A stretch of DNA of 64,000 nt from an uncultured Bacillota bacterium (lineage in GTDB: Bacteria; Bacillota; Clostridia; Christensenellales; UBA1242): the NCBI GenBank assembly GCA_947053645.1, contig CAMRTM010000001.1, positions 105,583-169,582 of the forward strand. The letters are read 5' to 3'. The notes below the pieces were generated by a model that did no database searches, was not told the DNA's origin, and was given only the letters and a program-made list of their open reading frames with translations. Below, piece by piece: positions 34,291 to 64,000 of the stretch. Numbering within the stretch: the stretch's first letter is position 1; every line of letters begins with the position of its first letter. The translations under genes and the position numbers were made by a program.

Positions 34291-35469
34291 TTAATCTTCA
34301 AACTTTGATGAAATTTTTTCAAGTTCATTCTTAAAGAATAAGTCCTCACTATTATTTGACCAGTATGTCATAACTACAGTAATACTTGCTCCATTTTTAA
34401 GTGCTTTGCCTAGAGAAACCAATTTTTGGGCAATCACGACTCCTCTCTCTTTATGTCCGCTTTGCATTTCTTTTTCTACAAAACATTTATCAAGCACATT
34501 CAGCATACCTACAATATCATTTACAAACAGCACCACTTTCTCTCCCTGTGTGAGAAGTCTTTCAGCATGTGCGATTGCATCTATTACCTTACCAAAACTT
34601 ATATCATAGCCTGTGCCATATACTGTAGTCATATCCAACATATTATCTATTTCAGAAAACATGATTTGGTCTTCAAAACAGGTGTTTAGTCCAAGTGTGA
34701 TGAGTTTATAATTATTCTCTTTGCAAAAAGTCGCAAACTCTTCAAATCTATTATCTTCAAACAAATTCCCATTATATTTGAGAAGATTCCTTCTTCCACA
34801 ATACAATTTGTAATCTCCATATTGCAACCTATCTCTTGAAATCATAGGACCGTCCATAATTTCAAATCTTGGTATATATTTCCCAACTTCTACACCATTT
34901 ATTTTATATATTTTGGACATTACATAATCTTCACTTGTATTAACTCTTATTCCTTCGCAGTCAATCAAATCCCCCGCTTGAAGCCCATATACCACCGTTT
35001 CTCTTTGCGGTACAAATACCTTCTTTAGCGTTTTTCTATCTAATAAACAAGCAACTACATCATTCTTTCTGAGTATACCAGAAAAGTCTGTAGCATCCTC
35101 ATCTTCAACCTCGGTGTATACTGGAACATCTTGCGAAAAACATACAATATCTTCATATCTCAGCGGCTTTCTTTGCGTAATCATATTATCAGTGTCATCT
35201 CCGCCAGTCATCTTTGCCATGATATCTTCAAGGTTACTAAGTTTTTTAAATGGTCTACCCTTCTTGGTATGTTTTACAAGAGTTGTATCGTTATTATAAA
35301 TTCTATCTAATATAAGTTCGATTAAATCGTTTCGCTTTTTTGTCGTTGGTGATGGCACGCCCACTTCACGCCCTAATGCCCTTAGTTCAAATATTCCAAG
35401 ATTTTCTACCAGCATTTGTTTATGTTGATTTCTATCCATCTGCCTAGTCGCAAGTAAATTTATATCCAT
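34291..35469 (-). CDS. Rho termination factor homologue with degenerate ATPase domain
   Basis: Rho_N-like FELRALGREVGV...KKRNDLIELI; OB-fold-like VFVP...YGLQAGDLI; ATPase remnants AERLLTQGEKVVLFVNDI and GKALKNGASITVVMT; no Walker A. Confidence 0.8.
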   Translation of the reverse strand: MDINLLATRQMDRNQHKQMLVENLGIFELRALGREVGVPSPTTKKRNDLIELILDRIYNNDTTLVKHTKKGRPFKKLSNLEDIMAKMTGGDDTDNMITQRKPLRYEDIVCFSQDVPVYTEVEDEDATDFSGILRKNDVVACLLDRKTLKKVFVPQRETVVYGLQAGDLIDCEGIRVNTSEDYVMSKIYKINGVEVGKYIPRFEIMDGPMISRDRLQYGDYKLYCGRRNLLKYNGNLFEDNRFEEFATFCKENNYKLITLGLNTCFEDQIMFSEIDNMLDMTTVYGTGYDISFGKVIDAIAHAERLLTQGEKVVLFVNDIVGMLNVLDKCFVEKEMQSGHKERGVVIAQKLVSLGKALKNGASITVVMTYWSNNSEDLFFKNELEKISSKFED

Positions 35470-35570
35470 TTTTCGCTTCCTCCTTTCGTTTATCAACATT
35501 TTTCTCTATTTTGTTTAGTTTTTCTTTATTTTATCATTATTTTGTACAATAGTCAACTTTTTAGACAATA

Positions 35571-36465: not shown

Positions 36466-37392
36466 CTATTCTGATTTTTTATTTGCTTCGAGTGCAAGTT
36501 CCTCCATTTTCATCTGTTTTGTTCTTGGTTTTCTTTTTGGCTTTTCAATTACTGTCGTTTCAGTAGTCTTCTCTGTTACAACTTCTTTTTTGACAGTTTT
36601 TTTGCTTTCTTTTACCTCTTCAGGTTCCTTTTGAGATGCTAATTTTTCCTTTTGAAATTCACTCATTCTTTTTTCGCTTTCTTTTGGAGAGTAGAGAATA
36701 AGTGTTTGCTTATCTTGATATCCTATTCTTCCATCCATATTCGCTGAAATGATTGCTTTTCCTAACATTTCTTCTATCTCGCCTTTATTAAAGGTGGATA
36801 CTTCACTCCCATCAGCAAAGAGCGCAATATGTCCATTATTCATTGTGCCAATTCGGCTGTCATTAAGAAGATATGTGATATGTCCATCAAGCATGGAAAC
36901 AAGTTGTGCATTATTCATAATACCTGTAATTTCCCCAGTAATCATGGTGACAATTCTTGCCTTTCCACGAACAAACATTACCTGACCTTCTGTCATGGTT
37001 GCAAGTTCTGCCTTATCATCTACAAAACGAATAAACCCTCCATTCATTGTGCCAATGGTTGCTTTTCCGCGTACATAATCTATTTTGCATGAATTTATTG
37101 TCGTGATGGATGCTTTTCCTGTAACTTCAGTTATTGTACCACTTTTAAAAAGCCCTATTTTTGCCTTTCCTCCCACGGTATCAATGACAGCGTCTTCCAT
37201 CATTTGAATCTTCGCTTTGCCATTTATCTCCTTAAAGGTGCAATTAAAACTTTCAAGCACTACTACATTTCCGCCTAATGAAACATTTGTACATTTATTT
37301 AATATATGCACACCGTTTGATAAACTGAAATTTGACTCTTCATCATGGATTATAGGATCAATTACCTTTTCTTTTTTCTTAAACAATTTCAT
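36466..37392 (-). CDS. Hypothetical protein with 17-aa beta-solenoid-like repeats
   Basis: About 11 tandem 17-residue repeats (xxVxGKAxIxTMxxGxI) and a charged C-terminal tail; GGAG RBS before ATG 37392. Confidence 0.7.
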   Translation of the reverse strand: MKLFKKKEKVIDPIIHDEESNFSLSNGVHILNKCTNVSLGGNVVVLESFNCTFKEINGKAKIQMMEDAVIDTVGGKAKIGLFKSGTITEVTGKASITTINSCKIDYVRGKATIGTMNGGFIRFVDDKAELATMTEGQVMFVRGKARIVTMITGEITGIMNNAQLVSMLDGHITYLLNDSRIGTMNNGHIALFADGSEVSTFNKGEIEEMLGKAIISANMDGRIGYQDKQTLILYSPKESEKRMSEFQKEKLASQKEPEEVKESKKTVKKEVVTEKTTETTVIEKPKRKPRTKQMKMEELALEANKKSE

Positions 37393-37512
37393 TCTCTCCC
37401 CTCTTTTCCTTTCGGCGATATATCTTACTATACCATAAAAACTTGTTACTTGCAAATATTTATTCACAAATTTAAAAAATTTCTACTATATACTTTTATA
37501 ATTTAAAATTGT

Positions 37513-39944: not shown

Positions 39945-40653
39945 ATTCTTCAGTCTTATCTTCGTGAATTTCGGGATTGGCAACTTCTGCTGGACGAGTA
40001 TCGCGAGTAGAAAGCGTTTTTTCTATCGCTGGTATGCCCAGATTGAGTTTTGTGAACTTACCCAAAGTATAATGGATGAAGAACAGCATTGCTCCCCCAA
40101 AGTTGCAAAACATATCCTTTAATGTATCCCAAAGTTCTGGCCCGTTTTGTGCATTTGTGCCAAATAATCTATCTACCGTAAATTCACTTAGTTCCCATAT
40201 AAACTCTACGCTTAGCGAAAACATAAAACAAAATATTATCACAAGCCATGGATTTATCTTCTTGTATTCTTGAAGGCGCGCAATAATAAAGATTCCACAC
40301 ATTGCAACAAGATATCCCATGATTATATGCACAGGTGTGTCAAACCACCATACTGTGTTATATATATTGCAAGCTGCTCCTATCAAAGACGCAACTAGAA
40401 AATATATCTGATAAGCAAGAAAAATTATGGGATTAAATCTAAACCTAAAAATTATTTCTAGAAGGAACGGAGCTAGCGCTATTCCTATCGTAATGCCTGA
40501 AATACTTAATCTTCTATCTGGGTCACCAATTAATGAATAATAGATAATTAACCCAATAGATGCAAGCACAATAGCAAGCATTAAAGATAAATTTACTACA
40601 CGAAATATTTTTTGACTTTTTGACAGTTGTTTAAATCTTATCATTTTTCTCAT
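39943..40653 (-). CDS. Multi-pass membrane protein, DUF2238/YjdF-like
   Basis: WWFDTPVHIIMG, EFIWELSEF and DTLKDMFCNFGGA motifs. Confidence 0.65.
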   Translation of the reverse strand: MRKMIRFKQLSKSQKIFRVVNLSLMLAIVLASIGLIIYYSLIGDPDRRLSISGITIGIALAPFLLEIIFRFRFNPIIFLAYQIYFLVASLIGAACNIYNTVWWFDTPVHIIMGYLVAMCGIFIIARLQEYKKINPWLVIIFCFMFSLSVEFIWELSEFTVDRLFGTNAQNGPELWDTLKDMFCNFGGAMLFFIHYTLGKFTKLNLGIPAIEKTLSTRDTRPAEVANPEIHEDKTEE

Positions 40654-43238
40654 AGATTTTTTAACTCCAAATTCAATTTCTCTAATAGTTCTTTATTCTT
40701 GTCAAGTTTTTCATTTTCTTTATCTACAAGTGCTTTAGGGGCCTTACTTATAAAACCAGCATTAGCAAGCATTTTCTCTGAGCGTGTGATTTCAAATTTA
40801 ACTGATTCTATCTCTTTATTGAGTCGCGTCTTTTCCTTCTCTATATCGCGTGAAATTGGAATATATACATTAGCAATTTCACTGATTACCTTTATGCACT
40901 CCTGTGTTGGCTCTTCCATTACGATTTCAGTACCAAAGCCAAGTTTTACGATATCATTCAAACTTTCTTTAATAAGTTTATCGTTTGATAAAATTTGCAT
41001 ATAAAGTTTTGTGCGCATATTATCTGGCATCTGGAATTGTGAACGCACCGCCCTTATCTGTTTTACTAGATTTATTACCTTATCATAATCATTTTTTAAT
41101 CCCTTTACTTCAACCTTTTTTGGATAGGCTGAAAACATAATTGTTTCATCATGAACAGGAAGATTTTGATATATATATTCAGTTACAAATGGAATATAAG
41201 GATGGAAAAGTTTTAAAAGCACTGTATACACATAAAGTAGTACATTTTGGGTGGTTGTTTTCTTATCTTGGTCATTCCCATAAAGGTCATTTTTAGCACC
41301 CTCCAAATACCAATCGCAGAACCTTGCGGTTGTAAATTCAATAAGATTTGATACCGTCACTCCTAGTGCATACTTATCGGTATTTTTCGTCACGGATTTT
41401 ATGAGTTTATCAAGGCTAGAAAGAATCCATTTATCTCTTTGTTGGAGTTTAAGCTCACTAAGCGGTATAACTTTTATCCCCTCTACATTTTGAAGAACAA
41501 ATTTTCCCGCATTATAGAGTTTATTTATAAATATCTTCGCCTCTTTTGCCTTATCTTCACTATACTTTATATCAGTACCCATACTCATTCCGCTGACAAG
41601 TGATAATCTTAAACTATCAGCACCATATTTCTCTACCATGTCTATTGGGTCAATTCCATTACCGAGATGCTTTGACATTTTCATTCCCTTTGCATCCCTG
41701 ACAATACCATTAATTACAACATTTTTAAATGGTACTTTCTTCATAAATTCAAGACCAGAGAATACCATTTTTGAAACCCAGAATGTAATAATATCTTGTG
41801 CTGTAACAAGTGTTGAAGTTGGGTAATAATATTCCAAATCTTCTGTTTTATCAGGATAGCCGAGTACTGAAAATGGCCAAAGGGCAGACGAAAACCATGT
41901 GTCAAGAACATCGGTTTCTTGTAAAAAGCGTCTGCTGTGACATTTTGGACACTGGTCTGGGGTATTCTCACTTGCGAATGTATGTTCACAGGCTTGGCAG
42001 TTGTATACTGGCAGTCTATGACCCAGCCAAATTTGTCTTGATATACACCAGTCCTGTGTGTTTTCAAGCCAATTTAAATAGGTCTTTTCAAAGCGTTTTG
42101 GAACAAATTTAATATCCCCTTTCTTCACTGCCTCGACTGCCGGCTTTACAAGGTCAGTCATCTTTACAAACCACTGAGTTGAAATTTTTGGCTCAGTGAA
42201 TGAGCCACATCTATCACAGGTGCCTACTTGATTTTTATACTTCTCTACCTTTACAAGGTATCCACCCTCTTTAAGAGCCTTCTCTATCTCAGGGCGCGCT
42301 TTTATTCTATCCATTCCTTCAAATTTACCCGCAATTTCAGTGAGTTTTCCATCATCATCTATACAGGTGACTATTTCAAGGTTATGCCTTAAACCTACCT
42401 CATAATCATTTGGGTCATGGGCTGGCGTAATTTTTACAGCACCAGTACCAAAGCCAATTTCGCAATATTCATCGCCAATAAGTTTTATCTTCTTTCCAAC
42501 AAGTGGAAGAATTAAATCCTTGCCTATCTTATCTTTATACCTTTTATCATTTGGGTTTACTGCAACTGCGGTGTCACCAAAGATTGTTTCTGGGCGGGTT
42601 GTTGCAACAGTTACATAGCCACTGCCGTCAGCATACGGATAGCGTATATGCCACAGGTTTGTGATTTGGTCGATATGAACATTTTCATTATCACTTATAC
42701 TTGTATGGCAATGTGGGCAGTAATTTACCACCCTCTTTCCTTTATAAATAAGCCCTCGGTTAAAATAATCAACAAAAACATGTCTTACAGCCCTTGAAAG
42801 ATTTTCATTCATTGTAAAGGCAAGTCTTTCCCAGTCACATGATAAACCAATAGACTTGAACTGGTCTATTATTGTATTGCCATAATCTTTATACCACTGC
42901 TGTCCTATCTCCAAAAACTTTTCGCGCCCTACCTCGTCCTTTGTGAGGTTTTGTTTGGCAAGATGCTTTACTATCATCTCCTCGGTGGCAAGAGCAGCAT
43001 GGTCGGTACCCGGCACCCAGAGTGCATTATACCCCTGCATCCTCTTTGTCCTTATAAGAATATCCTGAATTGTAGTATTCAGAGCGTGTCCAACATGTGC
43101 CTTTCCTGTTACATTTGGCGGTGGCATTACAATTGTATAACTCTCCCTCTCATCTGGAGTTGGCGAAAAATATCTCTTATTAAGCCAATTTTCATATATT
43201 TTCTTTTCAAATTCTTGTGGGTTATATGTCTTTTCCAT
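40650..43238 (-). CDS. valS: Valine--tRNA ligase
   Basis: PPPNVTGKAHVGH, DWCISRQIWLGHR, KMSKH and a C-terminal coiled coil. Confidence 0.98.
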   Translation of the reverse strand: MEKTYNPQEFEKKIYENWLNKRYFSPTPDERESYTIVMPPPNVTGKAHVGHALNTTIQDILIRTKRMQGYNALWVPGTDHAALATEEMIVKHLAKQNLTKDEVGREKFLEIGQQWYKDYGNTIIDQFKSIGLSCDWERLAFTMNENLSRAVRHVFVDYFNRGLIYKGKRVVNYCPHCHTSISDNENVHIDQITNLWHIRYPYADGSGYVTVATTRPETIFGDTAVAVNPNDKRYKDKIGKDLILPLVGKKIKLIGDEYCEIGFGTGAVKITPAHDPNDYEVGLRHNLEIVTCIDDDGKLTEIAGKFEGMDRIKARPEIEKALKEGGYLVKVEKYKNQVGTCDRCGSFTEPKISTQWFVKMTDLVKPAVEAVKKGDIKFVPKRFEKTYLNWLENTQDWCISRQIWLGHRLPVYNCQACEHTFASENTPDQCPKCHSRRFLQETDVLDTWFSSALWPFSVLGYPDKTEDLEYYYPTSTLVTAQDIITFWVSKMVFSGLEFMKKVPFKNVVINGIVRDAKGMKMSKHLGNGIDPIDMVEKYGADSLRLSLVSGMSMGTDIKYSEDKAKEAKIFINKLYNAGKFVLQNVEGIKVIPLSELKLQQRDKWILSSLDKLIKSVTKNTDKYALGVTVSNLIEFTTARFCDWYLEGAKNDLYGNDQDKKTTTQNVLLYVYTVLLKLFHPYIPFVTEYIYQNLPVHDETIMFSAYPKKVEVKGLKNDYDKVINLVKQIRAVRSQFQMPDNMRTKLYMQILSNDKLIKESLNDIVKLGFGTEIVMEEPTQECIKVISEIANVYIPISRDIEKEKTRLNKEIESVKFEITRSEKMLANAGFISKAPKALVDKENEKLDKNKELLEKLNLELKNL

Positions 43239-45261: not shown

Positions 45262-45291
45262 AAAAAAACACTAGAATTTCTAGTGTTTTTT
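45262..45291. terminator. Bidirectional terminator
   Basis: AAAAAAACACTAGA-ATT-TCTAGTGTTTTTT. Confidence 0.8.
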
Positions 45292-47673: not shown

Positions 47674-49107
47674 CTAATAATTTATTTTTCTTTGCAACCT
47701 CACCTTTCTTAACAACTTTTCTTTATGCTTTTGTACCTCCGTTTCCACCTCCTTCTTTCTATTCTCAGGTCTACTCATAATGAAATAGCGTAGTTCATCC
47801 ATGGCGTGGTCATCCTTTTTTACAGGGCTATCTTCATTCCCCCAAAAGTATCCTTTTATCTCTCTAATCATATTTATACAGTTTTTAAATATAAAAAGTT
47901 TACTTTTTCCTTCCGCATTTTTTAAGTAACTTTTAACCCTATTTATTCCAACAAACACATCTTTATTGACATTTGTATTTACGATAATTCCATTTTCGTA
48001 GAATAGTTGGGCGACACTTTTGCTGCTTGCAAGCGTTCTTTGATTGGCAGCAGAGTCAATAAGCGCCTCATACATTCCATGATAACTTGTATGCCAATTT
48101 AGTCTTTGGCAAATCTCTTTTATCCTTTGAGCATGATAATCGACAAACTTTCCTCTCTCATAATGCTCTGCAACAACATAAATATTTCCGTCATAATCCA
48201 CAGCATACCAATGCACAGAAGTGTAATTATTAAGTCCCGGATCTATCGCAATTTTACACTGCCAATCAAGTGGCACTTCAAAAGGGTCGATGACATTGAC
48301 ATTTTCATCAAATTCAGGATATACCATTCCCCCGTACTGTATAAATTTACCAAAGCGTCGACTTTCAAGTTCTTCCTCGCTCATGCTTTGACACATGAGC
48401 CGTACCTCCTCTTCATTGAGGTAGGGATTATCCGCCCATTCCATTTGTTCGTACCACACTTCGCTATCATTATTCTCATTCAGATATATCTTATTATATA
48501 CCCAAGTCAATCCTTTAAGCGGAGTCATGGTGCCGAAAATATGACCGCATCTATCTAGGACACGCATACGGCACTCTTCATATATATCATATGGTGGCTC
48601 TTCATCAAACCAAACAAAATCTAAAGAACTGCCCTGAAACTTCTCTCGTCCTTGGTCGCAACTTTTAAATGCAATCTTACTAGTACCACCAAGTGCATTT
48701 TTCACTATTATGAAATCTATTATGCCGTGGTTTGCACTATCTGATCTTCCACTAGACATCACAATTTCTACTATTTGGTCGCTTCTAAGATAATACAATA
48801 TCTTCGCTTGGGCGACCTCCCTTTGCACCTGTCTACTTACACTTACTACCCAGCATGAAATGTCCTTCTTATTCTCCCTATATGGATGTATTCCCCTCGC
48901 AAGCCACACGGTTTCTACTGCTCCACATTCGGTTTTGCCACTTCGATTGCCGCCAAACACCCAGCGGTTTTTCTTTTTGCATTTGTGGAAAGCCATTTGT
49001 TTCTTATGTACCCTCTCTCCACTATTATATTTTAAGAGATTATCTTCCTTCTTACGCCTCTCTATTTCTTTATTTATTAAGAATAATTTTTCAAGCCCCT
49101 TTTCCAT
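47674..49107 (-). CDS. Phage-type terminase large subunit (Terminase_6-like), orphan
   Basis: Walker A GGNRSGKT, Walker B VWFDEEP, coupling motif TMTP, DNPYL, and nuclease acidic motifs IAIDPG and DDHAMDELRY. Confidence 0.9.
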   Translation of the reverse strand: MEKGLEKLFLINKEIERRKKEDNLLKYNSGERVHKKQMAFHKCKKKNRWVFGGNRSGKTECGAVETVWLARGIHPYRENKKDISCWVVSVSRQVQREVAQAKILYYLRSDQIVEIVMSSGRSDSANHGIIDFIIVKNALGGTSKIAFKSCDQGREKFQGSSLDFVWFDEEPPYDIYEECRMRVLDRCGHIFGTMTPLKGLTWVYNKIYLNENNDSEVWYEQMEWADNPYLNEEEVRLMCQSMSEEELESRRFGKFIQYGGMVYPEFDENVNVIDPFEVPLDWQCKIAIDPGLNNYTSVHWYAVDYDGNIYVVAEHYERGKFVDYHAQRIKEICQRLNWHTSYHGMYEALIDSAANQRTLASSKSVAQLFYENGIIVNTNVNKDVFVGINRVKSYLKNAEGKSKLFIFKNCINMIREIKGYFWGNEDSPVKKDDHAMDELRYFIMSRPENRKKEVETEVQKHKEKLLRKVRLQRKINY

Positions 49108-49195
49108 TTCTACTCCGTCAAATAAAACCTAAAATGTCTACAAAAAGACAATTTATTGTTATCTATATAAAATATTTTTGTTTTACAATATCTTC

Positions 49196-49957
49196 ATGAA
49201 AACTTTAATTGTATTTTTATTGATGTTTTTACTATCTCCTATCTCATTACCTACAACGGCAGCACAGGAGACTTATTTTGCAAAAATAATTAATGCAAAT
49301 GTTTATTTCTACGCTCATGCTGACGATGAGTCCGCTTTATTTAAAATTCCTCAGTCCTATTTCGTGGAACTTTATGATAGAGAAAAAACCTTCTATAAAG
49401 CACGGTATCTTGACCTTGAAGGTTATGTTAAAATTGGACAGGTGTCGCCTATGGAAGGTCGACCTGTTACACCTTATTTTAGAAGTAATATAAATGTCTT
49501 TGCTCTTAAGGGACTAGCACTTAATGAATCTCCAAACCTTGAAAGCAAAGAAATTACTGCCCTTCCTTATGACAGTAAAGATACAATCTTTTATGGTGAA
49601 ATGGAGGGAAATAACATCCCAAACAAAAGTACAAAATGGTATTACTGCAAGACTTCTTCCAATCAGCAAGGTTATCTATACTCTGTATTTTGTGATGTAA
49701 TTGAACCCCTTACGGTAAACAATGAAAACTTTACTCCTATTACCAAGGATTTATTTGTAAATAGCAATCCTGCTTCAAGTGGACTTTCCACCACTGCAAA
49801 AACCTTTATCATTCTCGGCGTATCTTTGCCTTGTGCTTTTCTTATCTATCTACTTATCAAACCTTCACTTTCTGGTCAAACACATAAAATTAAAAATAAA
49901 CGCCCCCGCAGAAGACACGGCGACTATTTTGAATTTGATGAAAAAGACCTTTCATAA
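49196..49957 (+). CDS. Secreted protein with two SH3b-like domains and a C-terminal TM anchor
   Basis: Signal peptide; FYKARYLDLEGYV and KWYYCK...QGYLYS are SH3b-like ends; TM followed by a basic tail. Confidence 0.6.
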   Translation: MKTLIVFLLMFLLSPISLPTTAAQETYFAKIINANVYFYAHADDESALFKIPQSYFVELYDREKTFYKARYLDLEGYVKIGQVSPMEGRPVTPYFRSNINVFALKGLALNESPNLESKEITALPYDSKDTIFYGEMEGNNIPNKSTKWYYCKTSSNQQGYLYSVFCDVIEPLTVNNENFTPITKDLFVNSNPASSGLSTTAKTFIILGVSLPCAFLIYLLIKPSLSGQTHKIKNKRPRRRHGDYFEFDEKDLS

Positions 49958-50455: not shown

Positions 50456-50676
50456 AAGTCCTCCCTTTCTCTATTTAAAGTTTAAATTATCAATCTTGAA
50501 TAGTCAACAATTAGTGCCAAAAAATTTTACTTTTTTAAAATAATTTTACAAATATCGTGTTTTTGACGCAAAAATGACGGCAAACATTCGTCATTTCTCG
50601 CCAAATTACACATTATTTTGAGTTCTTATGACTTTATTATTTATATTTTTTATCCCAAAAAAATAATCAATTTTCC

Positions 50677-50721: not shown

Positions 50722-50807
50722 GCCGAAGTGGCGGAATGGCAGACGCAAGGGACTCAAAATCCCTCGAGGGCAACTTCATGAGGGTTCGACCCCCTCCTTC
50801 GGCACCA
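50722..50807 (+). tRNA. tRNA-Leu (anticodon CAA)
   Basis: Acceptor GCCGAAG/CTTCGGC, D-loop GGAATGGCAGAC, anticodon arm AGGGA-CTCAAAA-TCCCT, long variable arm, GGTTCGAC T-loop and encoded CCA. Confidence 0.96.
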
Positions 50808-50935
50808 ATTTTTTTAAATTATAGGGATTTTGAGTCCCTTGGGACATCAACTCCTGTCGGAGCCAGACCGCGAACAAGTCGCTCCCCGGCTTTGGCTAAA
50901 AACAACCCACCGGGTTGTTTTCTTTACGCGTCGCC

Positions 50936-50982
50936 CCCTCGAGGGCAACTTCATGTGGGTTCGACTCCCACCACCAGCACCA
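50936..50982 (+). other. 3' half of a different tRNA-Leu (att-like fragment)
   Basis: CCCTCGAGGGCAACTTCATG is identical to the tRNA variable-arm region; T stem GTGGG/CCCAC; acceptor strand CACCAGC-A-CCA. Confidence 0.8.
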
Positions 50983-50987
50983 CTGCT

Positions 50988-51015
50988 AAAAAAGCCTACT
51001 AAAAAGTAGGCTTTT
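50988..51015. terminator. Bidirectional terminator
   Basis: AAAAAAGCCTACT-AAAA-AGTAGGCTTTT. Confidence 0.8.
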
Positions 51016-51018
51016 ATT

Positions 51019-51264
51019 TTAATCTAAATTTATTTTATTTAAATCTTCAAATAAATCGCTATCAAAAAATTCTAAAACCTTAATGTTTAACGCTTGTAAT
51101 ATTATGAATATTGTTTTTATATTTGCTCCATCATATCTGCCGTATAATAAAGAATACAAGGTCCCTTTACTTTGTCCCGTCATTCTTGCCAATTGATTAA
51201 TGGAAATATCTTTATCATATAATATCTCTCTTATTCTTGTAGACAGACAATTGCTCACTTTCAT
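51019..51264 (-). CDS. XRE/Cro-C1 HTH regulator
   Basis: RIREILYDKDISINQLARMTGQSKGTL...EFFDS. Confidence 0.85.
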   Translation of the reverse strand: MKVSNCLSTRIREILYDKDISINQLARMTGQSKGTLYSLLYGRYDGANIKTIFIILQALNIKVLEFFDSDLFEDLNKINLD

Positions 51265-51284
51265 ATACGCCTACTTTTATTATT

Positions 51285-51527
51285 TTAATCTATATCTAAG
51301 TTTCCCTCATTAAATAAAGGGCTAGAAAAAAACTCTTCTACTGACATCCCTAATGTACGAATAATTACAATAAGTGTAGTTAAATTTACACCTTTATATC
51401 TTGAATACATTAAAGAAGTTATCGTTCCTTTTGATAAACCAGAATTTTTCTCTAATCTATATTGTGTAATGTTTTTCTCATCCAAAACTTCTCTTATTCT
51501 TGTGACTACTGCTTGTGACACTTTCAT
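51285..51527 (-). CDS. XRE/Cro-C1 HTH regulator
   Basis: RIREVLDEKNITQYRLEKNSGLSKGTI...EFFSS; tandem paralogue of 51019. Confidence 0.85.
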   Translation of the reverse strand: MKVSQAVVTRIREVLDEKNITQYRLEKNSGLSKGTITSLMYSRYKGVNLTTLIVIIRTLGMSVEEFFSSPLFNEGNLDID

Positions 51528-51539
51528 AATATCTCCTCC

Positions 51540-51643
51540 ATGTTTTTACATGATTATATTTTAACATAGACATTTTTTTAAATAATTATGTAAAAACATA
51601 GCATTTTTAAAATTTTTGTGATACAATAGGTATGTAAAAACAT
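51540..51643. promoter_or_regulatory. Three ATGT-N4-ACAT operators in the divergent intergenic region
   Basis: ATGTTTTTACAT 51540-51551; ATGTAAAAACAT 51588-51599 and 51632-51643. Confidence 0.65.
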
Positions 51644-51656
51644 AAAGGAGTGAAAT

Positions 51657-52217
51657 ATGGAATGGAATTTAGAAAATATTAAAGAATTAATAGATTTTTT
51701 AAATGAAAAAAATAAAAAAATATCAGATACCGTAGCATGCTTTACAGGGCATAGACCACAAAAATTATCTTGGAAATTTAATGATAATGATGAGAATTAT
51801 AAGCGTGTTTGGGCTGAAACACTGGATAAAATTGAATCCGCCGTGCAAAGAGGCTATCATACTTTTATAACTGGTATGGCACTCGGTTTTGATTTAATGT
51901 GTGCCGACATTGTGTTATGGTTAAAAGATGAATATCCAGAAATAAAACTTTTAGGTGCTTTACCTTGTAAAGACCAAACTAAATACTGGAAAGAAGAAGA
52001 TAAAGAAATGTATAATAAAATACTTTCGCAACTTGACGGCATCCGTTGCATTTACGATAAATACATAGGTCCTGAATGTATGTTTGAACGCAATAGATAT
52101 ATGATTAATAATTCTTCCCTTGTTATCGCGCTATTTGACGGCAAGGCAGGCGGAACAAAACAAACCATTGAATACGCAAAAAATCAAGGGTTAAATATTG
52201 AAATCATTAAACCTTGA
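51657..52217 (+). CDS. YpsA / DUF1273 SLOG-family protein
   Basis: CFTGHRP, FITGMALGFD, ERNRYMINNSSLVIALFDG and GGTKQTIEYA. Confidence 0.9.
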   Translation: MEWNLENIKELIDFLNEKNKKISDTVACFTGHRPQKLSWKFNDNDENYKRVWAETLDKIESAVQRGYHTFITGMALGFDLMCADIVLWLKDEYPEIKLLGALPCKDQTKYWKEEDKEMYNKILSQLDGIRCIYDKYIGPECMFERNRYMINNSSLVIALFDGKAGGTKQTIEYAKNQGLNIEIIKP

Positions 52218-52221
52218 TACA

Positions 52222-52264
52222 AGATTTCTCCACTTCAGGCTATCGCCCTTCGGTCGAAATGACA
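52222..52264 (+). repeat. REP-like palindrome, single copy
   Basis: AGATTTCTCCACTTCAGGCTATCGCCCTTCGGTCGAAATGACA, 4 nt after the SLOG stop. Confidence 0.88.
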
Positions 52265-52392
52265 GTGAATAATAATTCAAAATGGTAAAGAACTAATACT
52301 ATAAACGCTATACAGCCCTAATTTGCGTCAGATTAGCCATTTTTTTATATAAAAATTTGTGAATTATTCATTTTTTTTATTTTTAATAATAT

Positions 52393-52422
52393 TTGACTTT
52401 GCCTTCCTTCCTATGTTAGAAT
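52393..52422 (+). promoter_or_regulatory. sigmaA promoter of the glycosyltransferase
   Basis: TTGACT-N18-TAGAAT with an extended -10 TG. Confidence 0.55.
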
Positions 52423-52464
52423 GATTTTGCAAGAGCATGTCTGCTCTTATCTTTGGAGGTTATT

Positions 52465-53712
52465 TTGGAAGAGAAAAGATTGAAAATCGGACTTTTTAAC
52501 GACACTTTCTTTCCTATGGTAGATGGCGTTGTTATGGTTGTCGATAATTATGCAAAAAGACTTAGTAAGTACTGCGATGTTGTCGTGTTTGTTCCCTCTG
52601 GGAGAACGGATTTTGATGACTCTACACTGCCCTACAAGGTGGTAAGATGTAATTCAAAATTTCCAGTGGTTTTCCTTGATTATGACTTGCCTATGCCTAG
52701 TTCTGATGCAAAATTCTTAAAGCAACTTAAAAAAGAAGAACTTGACCTTGTACATATTCACTCACCTTTCAGCATTGGAAAGTTGGGTGTTAAATATGCG
52801 AAAAAACACAACATCCCTGTTATTGCCACTATGCATAGTCAATATTATAAAGATTTTTTATTGGCGACTAAAAGTAAATTAATTTCAAAACAACTTCTAA
52901 AAAATATTGTTAAAACCTTTAATGAATGTAATGAACTATGGACAATGAATCCTGCTTGTGAAGAATTAAGTCGTACATATGGATACAAAGGAAAAGTTAG
53001 GCTCATGCCAAACGGAACGAATTTAGTGAATGAACATACTTTAGAAGAGCAAACTAAATTTTCAAATGAAATAAGAGAAAAGCATTGTATCTCCCCTGAA
53101 GAAAAAATTTTATTCTACATAGGAAGAATGCATAAGTTAAAAAATTTAGATTTTGTTATTGATGTTTGTAAATATCTTAAGGAAAACAATTTTAAATTTA
53201 AAATGCTTTTTGTTGGCGGTGGTGCCCATATTGATTATTTTCAGAAAAAAGTAAAATCTTTAAAATTAAACGATGTTATTATCTTCGTTGGGCCCGTATA
53301 TGATAATTTAGAAAAGAGTAAATATATTATATCTGCTAATCTTCAAATTTTCCCTTCATTCTATGATACAGATGGTATTGTAAGAATTGAAGCGGCCGCT
53401 TACAATGTCCCTACCGTTTTTATCGAAAATAGCATTGCCTCTTCTGTAATTACTGACGAAGTAAATGGTTATATTGGAAAAGACGATGTAAAACTTTATG
53501 CAGAAAAAATAATTTCTATTTTTAAAGACGAAGCCAAATATCAACTAGTAAGGCAAAAATGCAATGAGGACATTTATATTACATGGGAGTCTATTGCTAA
53601 TGATGTCATTTCTAGTTATAAAGAATTAATTTCTAATTTCAAAATTAATTCTATGTCTGAGAATAAAAAAGTAAAAACTACTCGTCGTTCTTTAAAAACA
53701 AAGAGCATATAG
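52465..53712 (+). CDS. GT4 family glycosyltransferase (glycolipid synthase-like)
   Basis: KIGLFNDTFFPMVDGV, HIHSPFSIG, YIGRMHKLKN and FPSFYDTDGIVRIEAAA. Confidence 0.9.
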   Translation: MEEKRLKIGLFNDTFFPMVDGVVMVVDNYAKRLSKYCDVVVFVPSGRTDFDDSTLPYKVVRCNSKFPVVFLDYDLPMPSSDAKFLKQLKKEELDLVHIHSPFSIGKLGVKYAKKHNIPVIATMHSQYYKDFLLATKSKLISKQLLKNIVKTFNECNELWTMNPACEELSRTYGYKGKVRLMPNGTNLVNEHTLEEQTKFSNEIREKHCISPEEKILFYIGRMHKLKNLDFVIDVCKYLKENNFKFKMLFVGGGAHIDYFQKKVKSLKLNDVIIFVGPVYDNLEKSKYIISANLQIFPSFYDTDGIVRIEAAAYNVPTVFIENSIASSVITDEVNGYIGKDDVKLYAEKIISIFKDEAKYQLVRQKCNEDIYITWESIANDVISSYKELISNFKINSMSENKKVKTTRRSLKTKSI

Positions 53713-53795
53713 TTTTTAGATATAGACCTTTATCTATATCTTTTTTATTTGACTTTTAATTTAGAAACTGCAATAATGAATCTAAGGAGTTATAT

Positions 53796-54629
53796 ATGAA
53801 ATACAAATTTATAGCAGATGCATCTGTCGACATCCCTCAGGAGTTTTTAGACAGGTACGACATTGAAATTGTGCCTATTGAAGTCAATTTTGGCGAAGAA
53901 AGATACCTTGAAGGTATGTCTACCCGCGATTTCTACAAAAAGGTGCATGAGAGTGGTATCATCCCTAAAACCGCTATGCCTAATGCCTATAAATTTGAAC
54001 AAATATACAAAGATTGTGTCAACAAGCCTAACCTCTTCGTTATGACACTTGTTATTTCTATGGAAATGAGTCCTACCAAACTTCAGGCACAAATGGCTGC
54101 TGAAAACCTTGGCATGAAGAATGTTTTTATTGAAGAATGCGCTTGCACCACAGTTGCACAAGGTGCAATAATCTGTCAACTTTGTAGGTACATTGACGCC
54201 CACCCTAATGTCACGCCAGAAGAACTTATCAAAGTCTTCTATCTCCTTAAAGAAAAAGTCCGCCTTTACGCAGTTGTAGACGACCTTAAATATTTGAAAG
54301 CAAGCGGAAGGCTCTCCTCTACTGGAGCGATTGTAGGGTCAATGCTTAAGGTAAAGCCTATCGTAAGCATTGTAGAAGGCAAGGTTATCAATGTCGCAAA
54401 GGTAATGGGTTTGATTAAGGCTGAACAATTTCTAAAAGACAAACTTAAAAATCGTGACCGAGACTACCCTATCTATACCGCACACTCCGACTATGAAGAG
54501 GCAATGCTTAACCTTGTAGAAAAAAGCAAAGAGATAATCGACGGCGATGAAGTCATACTTTGTGAAATTGGGTATGTTGTAGGGTCACATGTCGGCCCTA
54601 AGTGTTACGGATTTGTGTATTTTGAATAA
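53796..54629 (+). CDS. DegV family fatty-acid-binding protein
   Basis: ADASVDI, PKTAMP, DDLKYLKASGRLS, LKVKPI and VGSHVGP. Confidence 0.93.
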   Translation: MKYKFIADASVDIPQEFLDRYDIEIVPIEVNFGEERYLEGMSTRDFYKKVHESGIIPKTAMPNAYKFEQIYKDCVNKPNLFVMTLVISMEMSPTKLQAQMAAENLGMKNVFIEECACTTVAQGAIICQLCRYIDAHPNVTPEELIKVFYLLKEKVRLYAVVDDLKYLKASGRLSSTGAIVGSMLKVKPIVSIVEGKVINVAKVMGLIKAEQFLKDKLKNRDRDYPIYTAHSDYEEAMLNLVEKSKEIIDGDEVILCEIGYVVGSHVGPKCYGFVYFE

Positions 54630-54635
54630 TTTACT

Positions 54636-54815
54636 GGGGAGGAACCATCTCGTCAGACACTCACAAGTTTTTTAAACTTGACTCGTTGCCTCGACGGTTC
54701 CCCGTCCCAATCTCCCTCCGTAAAGTGTCCTTTTGGATTACGCGGGAAAAATGGTACATTTTTCTAATCCGCTTCCTCGCCGAGCAAAGCTCTTCCCCTC
54801 GGAAATCCGCCAGTC
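54636..54815. repeat. GC-rich multi-hairpin intergenic element
   Basis: GGAACC...CAAGTTT/AAACTTG...GGTTCC long stem; shares CAGACAC and CTCG.TG.CTCG..GGTT motifs with 39699-39860. Confidence 0.5.
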
Positions 54816-54902
54816 CAAAATTATTAAATAAAAATAGATAACATAAAAAGTTTATTTCTGAAATTAATTATAAATTAAAAAGTGGCATTGCCACTTTTTT
54901 CA

Positions 54903-55118
54903 TTAATATTCTTTTCTTCCCAATAAATAATCAATAGACACATCAAATAAATCGGCTAATTTAATTAAATTTTTAATACTTGGCAATGTTATACCCCTCT
55001 CATAATTCTGGTAAGACTGATAAGCAATATCAATTTTTTTTGCAACAAATTCTTGCGTCCATTTATTTGCTTCTCTTAATTCTTTTACTATCTTAGAAAA
55101 TAAATATAATTGCTTCAT
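54903..55118 (-). CDS. XRE family HTH regulator
   Basis: VKELREANKWTQEFVAKKI...YQNYERG...LADLFDVSIDYLLGR; start uncertain (55118 or 55133). Confidence 0.88.
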   Translation of the reverse strand: MKQLYLFSKIVKELREANKWTQEFVAKKIDIAYQSYQNYERGITLPSIKNLIKLADLFDVSIDYLLGRKEY

Positions 55119-55157
55119 ATAAAAATAATACAATTAAAAACTGCACTTAATATAATT

Positions 55158-55174
55158 TACAGTTTTAAACTGTA
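55158..55174. promoter_or_regulatory. Operator TACAGT-N5-ACTGTA (1 of 3)
   Basis: Perfect palindrome between the two XRE genes. Confidence 0.65.
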
Positions 55175-55180
55175 AAAACT

Positions 55181-55390
55181 TTATCTTCTCCCTATTAAAT
55201 CATCCAATGAAATATCGTATATATCTGCTAATTTTAAAAAATTAGCAAGTGTAGGTACCGCAACGCCCCTTTCATATGCTTGATAGGATTGATAAGTAAT
55301 ATTCAGTTTACTGGCGACTTGCTTCTGTGTGTAGCCATATCTCTCCCTTAGAACTTTTAGATTTTCACACAAATTATAAAAATAATTCAT
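55181..55390 (-). CDS. XRE family HTH regulator
   Basis: LKVLRERYGYTQKQVASKL...YQAYERG...LADIYDISLDDLIGR; AAGGAG RBS before ATG 55390. Confidence 0.88.
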   Translation of the reverse strand: MNYFYNLCENLKVLRERYGYTQKQVASKLNITYQSYQAYERGVAVPTLANFLKLADIYDISLDDLIGRR

Positions 55391-55406
55391 AATGCTCTCC
55401 TTTTTA

Positions 55407-55461
55407 TTGACAATATACAGTTTTTGACTGTATAATTGTGAAAATACAGTTATAGACTGTA
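55407..55461 (+). promoter_or_regulatory. Consensus promoter with two TACAGT-N5-ACTGTA operators
   Basis: TTGACA-N18-TATAAT (55407-55436); operators at 55416-55432 and 55445-55461. Confidence 0.75.
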
Positions 55462-55477
55462 CTAAAGGAGAAAAATT

Positions 55478-55669
55478 ATGAAAAAATGTTGTTTTACAGG
55501 ACACAGACCCAAAAGTTTACCTTGGGGGTACAATGAAAATAGTTTAAAATGTATTGCTTTTAAAAAACAGTTAAGAAATGTTATCAATAATATCATTGAT
55601 AACGAAGGTGCAACTTACTTTATCACTGGTATGGCTAAGGTTATCATTATTGAAATAAAAAGAAACTGA
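55478..55669 (+). pseudogene. Truncated YpsA/DUF1273 SLOG gene
   Basis: CFTGHRP...YFITGMA, then unrelated sequence and a stop at 63 aa; no continuation seen before the REP cluster. Confidence 0.8.
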
Positions 55670-62440: not shown

Positions 62441-64000
62441 ATGATTAAGAAAAAGAATATGAAAAAAATTTGCTTTGCACTTGCCCTACCTTTTGCTTTC
62501 TTAGGGGCTGGTTTTATGGGTGGCTCTTTACCTGCTACCGACGGTGCGTCCAACAATAACAAGCAAGACTATATCAACCCTATTTCAGTATATGGTTCTT
62601 CTTTTAATGATGGAATTTCTGGCGAATACTCACAAAGCACGCCTGGGTGGGAGGTAATTTCTGAATACAATGATAGCAACGCTCTCGCGCTAATAATAAA
62701 TACTGGTGAACATTTTAATCAGTACAACTCTAACTACTACATTTCCGAAAACCCATACAAGACTGATGAAGATGACAGAATTTTAATGCTAAACTCTCGC
62801 AAAACGCTTGTGGGCGACAATGTTTCAAGAAGGCTTGCATATAAATCTAATGATATTACACTTAATGCAAACTCCTACTACCGCTTAAGCGTGGACGCTC
62901 TAACAAGTCATGACGGAAAAAACCAAGGCGAATATGATGTTAAAGCATCTATTTATGTCGACGGACTTAAAGATGCACAGGACAAGGAAGTTGTTCTTGG
63001 CTATGAAGGCGTGAACAACACATCTTGGGCAACATATTATTTCTATATCGCAACAGGAAGTGAATCACAGACAGTAAACCTTCAGTTATTCCTTGGTGGA
63101 AGAGAAAACCACTCGACTGGCGTTGTTTTCTTTGACAAGGTATACTTAGAGCAATTTAGTGAAAATACATTTTTCAATGCTGCGATTGACAAAGAATATA
63201 ACTTTACTGACAGCCTTGACACTCACACTACCGACACTAAATTCCTTGTAGACAGACTTCAAGATGAAGAAAGCGACAAAGAATTAAAACTAGATATGAC
63301 GGGCTATAATTTTGATTTTGAAGAATCTCGTCCCGACGATTTTTCTATGCTTGGCGACGCTTGGACTTCCTCTATAACACCTACCTCTCATGCTTGGATT
63401 ATGCCGGTGGTAAGAGGTGCACAGGCTGAATACTTTAGAGAGCAGACCATGAGCAGCCAAAATCCACAGGGTTATCAATATGTGGGTAGCGACCTTAGTT
63501 TTGACAAGTCTAAGGGAAAAGATGGAGAAAACTCCAACGCACTCGTACTCTTTACAGACGGACAGAGCCATGTTTCAGTTAAATCAAAAGACATCACTTT
63601 GAAAGCACATGGAACTTACAAATTCTCGCTTCGTGCAAAAGTGAGTGATATACGCTCTGGCAATTTCACAGTGTCTATAAAGGAAACCGATAAAATTTAT
63701 GAGTGGTACAACATTAAATCACTCTACCCTACACTCGCTTCCACCACTAAGACCTGTGCGACTGAAAATAGCGACAACCCTCTTTACAATGACTACGCGA
63801 CTATAGATATTTTTGTAAAGTGTCACAATGAATACGATACTAATGTTTACCTTGAAATTGCTCTTGGAAATGAAAATGAACTTGCAGAAGGTTGTGTGTT
63901 TATCGACAACATTTCAGTATCACAAATTGACAGCGCTTCCTTCTCTACAGATGGCAACGCTCTGACTATGAAGGTTGCATCCTCTGACCCAGACTTTACA
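62441..64000 (+). CDS. Large secreted/surface protein with repeated beta-sandwich (CBM-like) modules (partial, runs off the window end)
   Basis: Starts MIKKKNMKKICFALALPFAFLGAGF (signal peptide); motifs LNANSYYRLSV, WATYYFYIATG, VFFDKVYL and VFIDNISV. The frame matches at both ends of the stretch; AAGGTG RBS. Not in the ORF track. Confidence 0.8.
   Translation, partial: MIKKKNMKKICFALALPFAFLGAGFMGGSLPATDGASNNNKQDYINPISVYGSSFNDGISGEYSQSTPGWEVISEYNDSNALALIINTGEHFNQYNSNYYISENPYKTDEDDRILMLNSRKTLVGDNVSRRLAYKSNDITLNANSYYRLSVDALTSHDGKNQGEYDVKASIYVDGLKDAQDKEVVLGYEGVNNTSWATYYFYIATGSESQTVNLQLFLGGRENHSTGVVFFDKVYLEQFSENTFFNAAIDKEYNFTDSLDTHTTDTKFLVDRLQDEESDKELKLDMTGYNFDFEESRPDDFSMLGDAWTSSITPTSHAWIMPVVRGAQAEYFREQTMSSQNPQGYQYVGSDLSFDKSKGKDGENSNALVLFTDGQSHVSVKSKDITLKAHGTYKFSLRAKVSDIRSGNFTVSIKETDKIYEWYNIKSLYPTLASTTKTCATENSDNPLYNDYATIDIFVKCHNEYDTNVYLEIALGNENELAEGCVFIDNISVSQIDSASFSTDGNALTMKVASSDPDFT

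Follow-up and report, generated by a model that had tools for sequence, protein, structure and literature searches.

To our knowledge, few gene transfer agent (GTA)-like systems are known outside the Alphaproteobacteria. The small terminase (TerS) of RcGTA, from Rhodobacter capsulatus, is described as having no DNA-binding domain. FpGTA of Faecalibacterium prausnitzii, the first GTA-like system from a gut commensal, was published in 2026, and loss of the TerS DNA-binding domain has been described for it as well (Borodovich et al., Nat Commun 2026, PMC12946183). Its 10.5-kb operon encodes this TerS together with the large terminase (TerL, RCH50852.1), portal (RCH50851.1), scaffold and capsid (RCH50849.1), a second operon of 5.5 kb lies 125 kb away, and the particles are ~40 nm in size, have no visible tails and contain 8.4-8.9 kb of host DNA (PMC12946183). 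GTA-like packaging was also detected in two Christensenellaceae metagenome-assembled genomes (MAGs), with peaks at 4.1 and 7.1 kb for HGM11616 and at 6.3 kb for QANA01, and no responsible genes were identified (PMC12946183). Here we analyze an intact terL gene in a 64-kb window from an uncultured gut bacterium of the order Christensenellales (GCA_947053645.1), where the window is the whole stretch of 64,000 nucleotides between positions 105,583 and 169,582 of contig CAMRTM010000001.1. The Christensenellales are a heritable, health-associated gut group, and we found no literature description of such a cluster in this order. We consider it probable that the encoded TerL acts as the motor in a GTA-like particle system that derives from a phage, is maintained by its hosts and is vertically inherited by a large clade of gut Christensenellales.

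FpGTA appears to be the closest described analogue. Both systems occur in Gram-positive gut Clostridia, have a podovirus-like head module of about 10 open reading frames (ORFs) and a TerS without a DNA-binding domain, lack replication and integration genes, occupy more than one locus and are near-ubiquitous in their host clades. They differ in host order (Christensenellales here, Oscillospirales for FpGTA) and in organization. In the system described here, terS lies downstream of terL and is followed by a gene for a Zn-ribbon protein, terL is split from the capsid genes in the genus under study, terL has genes for an Ltr activator and an SH3b membrane protein as conserved companions, and we identified no fibre/endolysin operon. 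RcGTA and other alphaproteobacterial GTAs are alike in having a head-packaging cluster that is domesticated, passed on vertically and subject to purifying selection, a TerS without a DNA-binding domain, accessory genes over several loci and connections to host regulation (in part from PMC12946183). In contrast to the present system, RcGTA has a siphovirus-like long tail and an HK97-type head with a protease, resides in a Gram-negative host, is unrelated in sequence and keeps terL in its main cluster. As far as can be told from its genes, the system would belong with the GTA-like domesticated phage particle systems, like FpGTA and RcGTA.

The large terminase gene and its conservation

The terL reading frame has a stop-free translation of 477 residues (Table 1). 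The protein matches Terminase_6N (2.1e-13) and Terminase_6C (1.4e-06) in Pfam and phrog_2 'terminase large subunit' (2.3e-32) in PHROG. A preliminary description of this stretch had listed every TerL motif as intact, and we located all five: GGNRSGKT (residues 52-59), WFDEEP (166-171), TMTP (193-196), IDPG (288-291) and DDHAMDE (432-438). Across 107 aligned orthologues these catalytic motifs are invariant or carry conservative substitutions only. TMTP is invariant, GGNRSGKT and WFDEEP show conservative changes, and the nuclease residues D289, D351 and D433 are invariant in TerL alignment A1. The motifs and the Terminase_6N match together identify the Walker A, Walker B and coupling C-motif of an ASCE ATPase, and the Terminase_6C match and invariant acidic residues identify an RNaseH-like nuclease. 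The closest solved structures are the large terminases of the Thermus phages G20c (5OE8, the best match) and P74-26 (4ZNI), with E-values of only ~1e-5. A metagenomic protein collection contains more than 5,000 homologues, to which NCBI gives the name 'terminase family protein'.

The window is part of contig C1 of a 0.87-Mb assembly (G000; C1, C2 and so on denote its contigs) that consists of 19 contigs, is an estimated 95% complete and has ~35% G+C. terL is single copy in this genome, and the many public runs that contain the locus are mouse-gut metagenomes. All other Pfam-matched genes in the window are housekeeping genes, encoding ScpA/B, D-Ala-D-Ala carboxypeptidase, MiaA, MutL, MutS, MiaB, PBP1A, RecA, PgsA, RimO, FtsK, PNPase, S15, RelA/SpoT, RecJ, valyl-tRNA synthetase (ValRS), a DegV protein, MinD, MreB, Ppx/GppA and transporters; three ORFs (34291-35499, 36466-37467 and the open-ended 62441-64000) are without annotation. 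The preliminary description had reported that the 64 kb hold no portal, capsid, tail, integrase or lysis gene. This was borne out by Pfam, with which we found no portal, capsid, tail, integrase or lysin gene in the window, and by hidden Markov models (HMMs) for the families of the cognate portal, capsid and related proteins, which gave zero matches there. The separation of about 70 bp that it had given between terL and a divergent gene is also correct: the distance is 70 bp by ORF call (49107 to 49178), or 88 bp if the divergent gene starts at the conserved ATG at 49196.

One intact TerL orthologue, with 62-81% identity, is present in 34 of the 36 other species of the genus, and the two species without a match are represented by MAGs of 89% and 94% completeness. 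An even sample of high-quality genomes from across the order, in which orthologues were defined by at least 52% identity, contained TerL in 137 of 299 genomes and 63 of 143 genera. The gene is nearly always single copy, and families are wholly positive or wholly negative. The identity of TerL orthologues to the copy in this genome follows that of ValRS (Spearman 0.93, n=34), and TerL is conserved to a degree that equals or exceeds that of ValRS. Every terL orthologue examined has an open frame. Synonymous sites are saturated in comparisons with terL of this genome (pS ~0.77-0.86), and usable dN/dS values therefore come from distant-lineage pairs only; the two least saturated pairs gave 0.011 (dS 0.31) and 0.022 (dS 0.99). 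terL is under purifying selection. Of the checks proposed in the preliminary description, the survey of orthologues thus revealed a distribution that is near-universal in the genus and family-structured, not patchy, in the order, and dN/dS pointed to purifying selection. Vertical inheritance and purifying selection over a host clade, as in a GTA-like system, are both observed.

The partner head operon and its separation from terL

The genes beside terL in sister families served to make HMMs, with which we searched the whole genome in six frames. All of the flank-gene HMMs matched one block on the + strand of contig C2 (C2:117680-124845), in which the genes are intact. The block begins with a TerS derivative (c15) and a Zn-ribbon-like protein (c47), which are followed by the portal and other head genes (Table 1). 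Its major capsid protein matches NCBIfam NF033394 capsid_maj_Podo (9e-70). In a sister-family locus (L026), the portal matches P22_portal (6.5e-20), the major head protein matches phrog_14242 (5.7e-42), the adaptor matches phrog_2377 (Ad1), and a DUF7934 protein comes after the head genes. The genome that carries terL therefore also encodes the cognate portal and small terminase, and the genes are dispersed yet co-maintained as in GTA-like systems, with terL on C1 and the head operon on C2. The portal was found in all 36 species of the genus. Of 24 families sampled beyond it, the same 9 were positive for TerL and for the portal, and the identities of the two proteins to their counterparts in this genome are correlated (Pearson 0.87). 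The integrase, repressor, replication module, complete tail and endolysin of a functional temperate prophage are absent from the window and from the surroundings of the head operon; the phage-derived structural and packaging genes reside in the chromosome without genes for replication, integration or immunity.

In other families these genes form one compact cluster with the order c2, c1 (on the opposite strand), terL, c15, c47, portal, scaffold, capsid, c14, adaptor, c7, DUF7934 and holin-like genes. The operon is ~10 kb long in sister families, and the starts of terL and the portal gene are 1.4-3.1 kb apart. Three species of the genus have an intermediate layout, in which c2, c1 and terL are followed by c3, a gene for a 195-aa protein, the binding-protein, permease and ATPase genes of an ABC transporter, and then c15, c47, portal and the rest. 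This layout indicates an insertion of ~6 kb of host genes that parted terL from c15. In the genome analyzed here, the same ABC ATPase, permease and binding-protein genes lie directly upstream of the C2 head operon, and a paralogous ABC binding-protein gene adjoins c3 in the window. Across the genus, terL and the head operon are separated by 7.7-150 kb or lie on separate contigs; outside the species with the intermediate layout, the spacing is 34-150 kb or the two are on separate contigs. On this evidence we read the operon break as old, common to the genus and further rearranged later, with both halves intact throughout. The flanks of the terL module in sister species consist on one side of core genes whose counterparts in this genome are 50-81% identical. 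The c2-side flank is a variable region without matches to the particle-gene families, which are the only families that were searched there.

Nine of the 12 members of the c15 family match phrog_309 'terminase small subunit' (best 5.3e-32). The c15 protein of this genome does so at 8.3e-06, over profile positions 195-243 of 319 only, and a search of the PDB with the c15 profile gave chance-level matches only. The c15 homologue in G039, a Christensenellales genome from a basal family, is a 150-aa protein with an N-terminal helix-turn-helix (HTH) and is encoded upstream of terL, which is the classical order. In the clade that contains our genome, c15 is a TerS derivative that has lost its DNA-binding HTH, and it lies downstream of terL in sister families. 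At the level of sequence, it is mainly the missing DNA-binding domain of TerS that leads us to expect packaging without specificity. Throughout the chromosomal clade, c47 is retained in the position after the HTH-less TerS and before the portal, and it might compensate for the lost DNA-binding domain.

Among the 50,697 deposited phage genomes, the best-matching TerL shares 29.6% identity. Relatives in IMG/VR are of two kinds. Short contigs, with identities of 58-67%, carry c2, c1, terL and head genes and look like pieces of Christensenellales chromosomes. Many of the short contigs evidently derive from the chromosomal cluster, and in practice IMG/VR and similar catalogues count many such fragments as viral contigs. 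The second kind comprises contigs of 30-50 kb with higher G+C, in which a TerL of ~50% identity is followed by portal, scaffold, capsid, c14, adaptor and c7, without c1 or c2; these phage-type relatives have no match to the TerS-derivative or Zn-ribbon families. One of them, L177 (IMGVR_UViG_3300028833_000261; 44.6 kb, TerL 51%), has homologous genes from TerL to c7 in the same order as the chromosomal cluster. L177 differs in that it lacks c1 and c2, falls outside the chromosomal clade and carries genes for a RepA-like replication initiator, a DnaC-like loader and a RusA-like protein upstream of terL. It is a phage, and the chromosomal form has none of these replication genes.

A single-gene TerL tree, built by the quick method of FastTree, groups the TerLs of the genus in one clade (support 98). 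The chromosomal, c1/c2-type TerLs also form one clade (96 rows, support 100), with the phage-type contigs basal to it; these contigs, the G039 copy and both copies from another genome, G045, lie outside. The topology fits one ancient capture followed by vertical descent. As a separate observation, G045 (2.4 Mb) carries two head-cluster copies at loci of 66% G+C (locus L027 is G045:C1:2209000-2228500), and one of its TerLs is identical to that of the IMG/VR 'viral' contig L176 (IMGVR_UViG_2887785357_000001).

The proposed particle system and rival explanations

The preliminary description had argued that a host-maintained packaging or DNA-processing system fits this terL better than a decaying prophage. 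Distribution, selection, partner genes, locus context and distance from phages all favor that view. A genome-wide HMM search for dispersed head genes, which it had suggested, found portal, capsid, adaptor and others at the second locus. Its portrayal of terL as an 'orphan' without an upstream terS is accurate inside the window; for the genome it must be revised, given the partner genes on C2 that include an HTH-less TerS derivative. It had also named, as grounds for refuting that view, a gene that clusters with temperate-phage TerLs and sits in a full prophage in sister strains. None of the 14 sister-species loci examined contains a full prophage, and TerLs of cultured phages are at most 29.6% identical, with the ~50% relatives branching outside the chromosomal clade.

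In the scenario that we favor, the ancestor would have been a short-tailed phage with a P22-type portal, and the retained parts would be c2, c1, TerL, HTH-less TerS, Zn-ribbon protein, portal, scaffold, major capsid, neck/adaptor, nozzle-like and holin-like proteins. Within the genus, ~6 kb of host genes (c3 and the ABC transporter) would have split terL from terS, and later rearrangements would have parted the two halves. c2 would turn on terL in the manner of Ltr activators at the late operons of phages, and the capsid operon would be driven by a host-type promoter. TerL and HTH-less TerS would dock on the portal and fill small heads by a headful mechanism. With no sequence-specific initiation, the cargo would be mostly host DNA, and the holin-like proteins would release the particles.

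The system is thus a strong candidate for GTA-like packaging of host DNA. Several observations weigh against this scenario. No endolysin, tail fibre or receptor-binding gene could be tied to the system in this genome. Family f4 (for example G039, locus L025 on G039:C6) has an HTH-bearing TerS upstream of terL with no c1 or c2 nearby, and its cluster is kept in all 11 of its sampled genomes among the matches listed; loss of sequence specificity is therefore not order-wide, and f4 may represent an earlier or separate stage of domestication. The capsid belongs to the 'N4-gp56 family' in FpGTA and to capsid_maj_Podo here, a comparison of family names only that points to different capsid families and leaves homology unproven. 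A promoter scan detected no sigma-70 consensus promoter on the terL strand of 49108-49195, and no Ltr repeat array was demonstrated upstream of terL. The promoter architecture that c2 and the head operon have in common is shared by groESL and tig-clpPX, which makes it a general class of strong host promoters and not a private switch. Weakly in favor of transcription, terL, c2 and c3 are represented in mouse-gut metatranscriptome (Logan) contigs of a depth similar to that of contigs over ValRS; these contigs are short and low-depth and could reflect DNA carry-over.

Particles could also be made for a selected role other than gene transfer, as PBSX-like killing or lysis particles or for public-good release, with DNA packaged only for head maturation. 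PBSX, although it packages host DNA of 13 kb, functions as a tailocin (discussed in PMC12946183), and in our system the operon ends in holin-like genes and a wall-binding SH3b protein is conserved with terL. We nevertheless regard such a role as unlikely. Neither locus has a contractile tail, sheath, tube, baseplate or killing module, the only structures of this kind being a podovirus-type portal, adaptor and nozzle, and TerL is strongly conserved in its nuclease as well as its ATPase, an argument that DNA content matters. We know of no short-tailed particles that serve as bacteriocins, which also counts against killing. Another explanation is that TerL, c1 and c2 were co-opted for a capsid-independent host function, such as repair, defence or a DNA-processing nuclease, and that the capsid operon is a separate relic. 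The physical uncoupling of terL from the capsid genes in this genus, and the fact that terL keeps its own regulator, would be consistent with co-option. However, TerL and portal coincide in presence and absence over 60 genomes and diverge in a correlated manner (r=0.87), and the capsid operon is equally intact and forms one operon with terL in sister families, so that this account seems very improbable to us.

We give still less credence to the idea that the genes belong to an element that is mobile even now, be it a satellite or a cryptic or helper-dependent phage, and is passed on horizontally in the Christensenellales. IMG/VR lists many fragments as viral, real phages exist with a ~50% identical TerL and homologous head module, and G045 has two copies. 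Yet the loci, which are single copy, have no integrase, replication or repressor genes inside them or alongside; TerL divergence tracks that of a housekeeping gene, the TerLs of the genus are monophyletic, the flanks include core genes, and the operon is intact in 30-plus species although it is split by host genes. That terL is isolated among host genes, and that other phage modules have been lost, would also be expected of a decaying prophage remnant that happens to be intact. This possibility is effectively refuted by the open frames of all orthologues examined, by the motifs kept in 107 of them despite saturated synonymous sites and by dN/dS values far below 1.

The motor and capsid genes have been unlinked for as long as the genus, with its more than 36 species, has existed and yet are intact, which is hard to explain except by a host-beneficial function. 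The split architecture is also a natural experiment on the retention of unlinked motor and capsid genes. With its presence in roughly half of sampled Christensenellales, the gene set is a concrete, testable candidate for the packaging observed in Christensenellaceae. We tentatively suggest, with rather more doubt than confidence, that it is the genetic basis of the 4-7 kb GTA-like packaging in the Christensenellaceae MAGs and constitutes an order-wide, anciently domesticated podovirus-type GTA independent of FpGTA. If so, genomes that have shrunk to 0.8-1.3 Mb keep this gene set at ~1% of their coding capacity even after the operon break, which would imply strong selection for particle-mediated DNA exchange or repair in genome-reduced gut symbionts.

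Regulation and neighbouring genes

Table 1. Features of the terL module and the partner head operon. Positions are those of the window unless contig C2 is named.
Feature	Position	Strand	Basis or description
terL, large terminase (packaging ATPase and RNaseH-like nuclease)	47674..49107	-	Pfam, PHROG, motif conservation
terL/c1 divergent control region	49108..49195	.	inverted repeats ACAAT-AA-ATTGT and TGTCT-N6-AGACA; T-tract then TGTC
c1, membrane protein	49196..49957	+	signal peptide, tandem SH3b, transmembrane helix, acidic tail DYxEFDExDL; divergent from terL, convergent with c2
Terminator-like hairpin just past c2 stop codon	49900..49918	-	consensus scan
c2, putative Ltr-type late activator (sigma-70 region-4-like/DUF1492), 167 aa	49952..50455	-	upstream of terL, same orientation
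c2 promoter	50479..50526	-	T-tract, TGGCAC, 6 nt, TTGACT (-35), 17 nt, TAAACT (-10)
c3, GLUG-repeat surface protein, 764 aa	45295..47589	-	directly downstream of terL; signal peptide, C-terminal transmembrane anchor, weak GLUG match
Bidirectional terminator-like hairpin, would end terL-c3 transcript	45263..45291	.	consensus scan, strong
c15, TerS derivative, 97 aa	C2:117680-117973	+	phrog_309 match
c47, four-cysteine Zn-ribbon-like protein, 74 aa	C2:117957-118181	+	between TerS derivative and portal
Portal, 617 aa	C2:118171-120024	+	family HMM
After portal, in order: scaffold-like protein; major capsid protein, 398 aa; 105-aa protein; head-tail adaptor; 493-aa virion protein (nozzle-like); two small holin-like membrane proteins	within C2:117680-124845	+	

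Orthologues of c2 match Sigma70_r4_2 (8 of 15) or DUF1492 (LtrB; 6 of 15), and c2 also matches phrog_36. Its AlphaFold2 (AF2) model is all-helical (pLDDT 88.8), and the core superimposes on region 4 of an extracytoplasmic function (ECF) sigma factor (3HUG) with a root-mean-square deviation of 1.6 A over 72 residues, at a weak Foldseek E-value of 0.06. In 14 of 20 loci c2 and terL are syntenic, and by domain and position it fits the LtrA/LtrB classes of late activators. Ltr activators alone suffice to turn on terS-led late operons in phages of Gram-positive bacteria (PMC3753634). The Ltr-controlled late operons of temperate phages (RinA, ArpU, LtrA/Sigma70_r4, LtrB/DUF1492; PMC3753634) resemble this locus in having a small activator gene just upstream of the packaging genes, whereas here there is no cI-type early region and an opposite-strand gene lies between the activator and terL.

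That opposite-strand gene, c1, adjoins terL across families. SH3_3 was found in 1 of 15 members, and there is no catalytic domain. The best PDB match of its AF2 model (pLDDT 83) is 4KRT (5.8e-06), which shows the wall-binding tandem SH3_3 domains from the endolysin of phiSM101, a phage of Clostridium perfringens. Lysis control, or wall attachment in release or uptake, are possible roles for c1. In the control region between c1 and terL, the T-tract and TGTC of the terL leader recur in orthologous leaders; such a leader is compatible with activator dependence and is no proof of it.

The c2 promoter has an architecture that recurs at ~22 distinct orthologous c2 and head-operon sites of the genus. 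A matrix trained on the other species ranked the c2 site first and the head-operon promoter third genome-wide. Other sites of this T-tract/TGGCAC class in G000 are C2:117600 (+), C1:185452 (-) and C1:3900 (+), and the class is common to c2, the head operon, groESL and tig-clpPX. We rejected the architecture as a system-specific switch, as the other top matches lie upstream of groES-groEL and tig-clpP-clpX. A sigma-54 -24/-12 reading of the TGGCAC promoter was likewise rejected: the element has one base more than that spacing allows, and it is followed by a -10 box. A conserved palindrome-like element (TTGTAAAATATTTTACAA and variants) is found upstream of c2 in orthologous loci (L013, L019, L128-L130) and at ~50530-50560 in the window, with TGACA/TTCGACA-type repeats further upstream of the c2 promoter. 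Palindromes of the TTGTAAAATATTTTACAA type may be operators for a repressor; a genome-wide search for them was too noisy in this AT-rich genome to define a regulon.

The hairpin that follows the c2 stop codon indicates that c2 and terL are probably separate transcripts. A consensus scan found no terminator between terL and c3 and a strong one after c3, so these two genes may be co-transcribed. c3 is limited to the genus, has 23-37% identity between species and diverges fast. Its signal peptide, GLUG repeats, C-terminal anchor, genus-only spread and fast evolution ruled it out as a missing portal or tail fibre, and it is probably host cargo of the insertion and not part of a virion. Distant c3 paralogue-like matches occur in G000, in a giant ORF of ~3,360 aa at C6:36956-47038 and at C14:9556-10764 and C6:18901-21363.

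On the c2 side of the module, the stretch at 50736-55504 is variable between species of the genus and has the lowest G+C in the window (~30-31%). It contains small XRE-type HTH genes (51019-51264, 51285-51527, 54903-55133 and 55181-55504), a YpsA/SLOG protein (51657-52217) and a GT4 glycosyltransferase (52453-53712). Elsewhere in the genome, at C4:38748-39732 and C2:85140-85466, there are arrays of ~108-aa paralogous genes (MKEIIFNKKDYKD...) behind near-identical promoter/leader copies. Their products may resemble small immunity proteins. Finally, identities to the window ValRS (40650-43238, -) fall into three groups across the genus: 61-76% in most species, 52% in G006, G011 and G015, and ~31% for matches to ORFs of ~812 aa in six species (G001, G003, G004, G018, G021 and G036). 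In some species, this grouping points to replacement of the gene or to a ValRS that is divergent or was missed.

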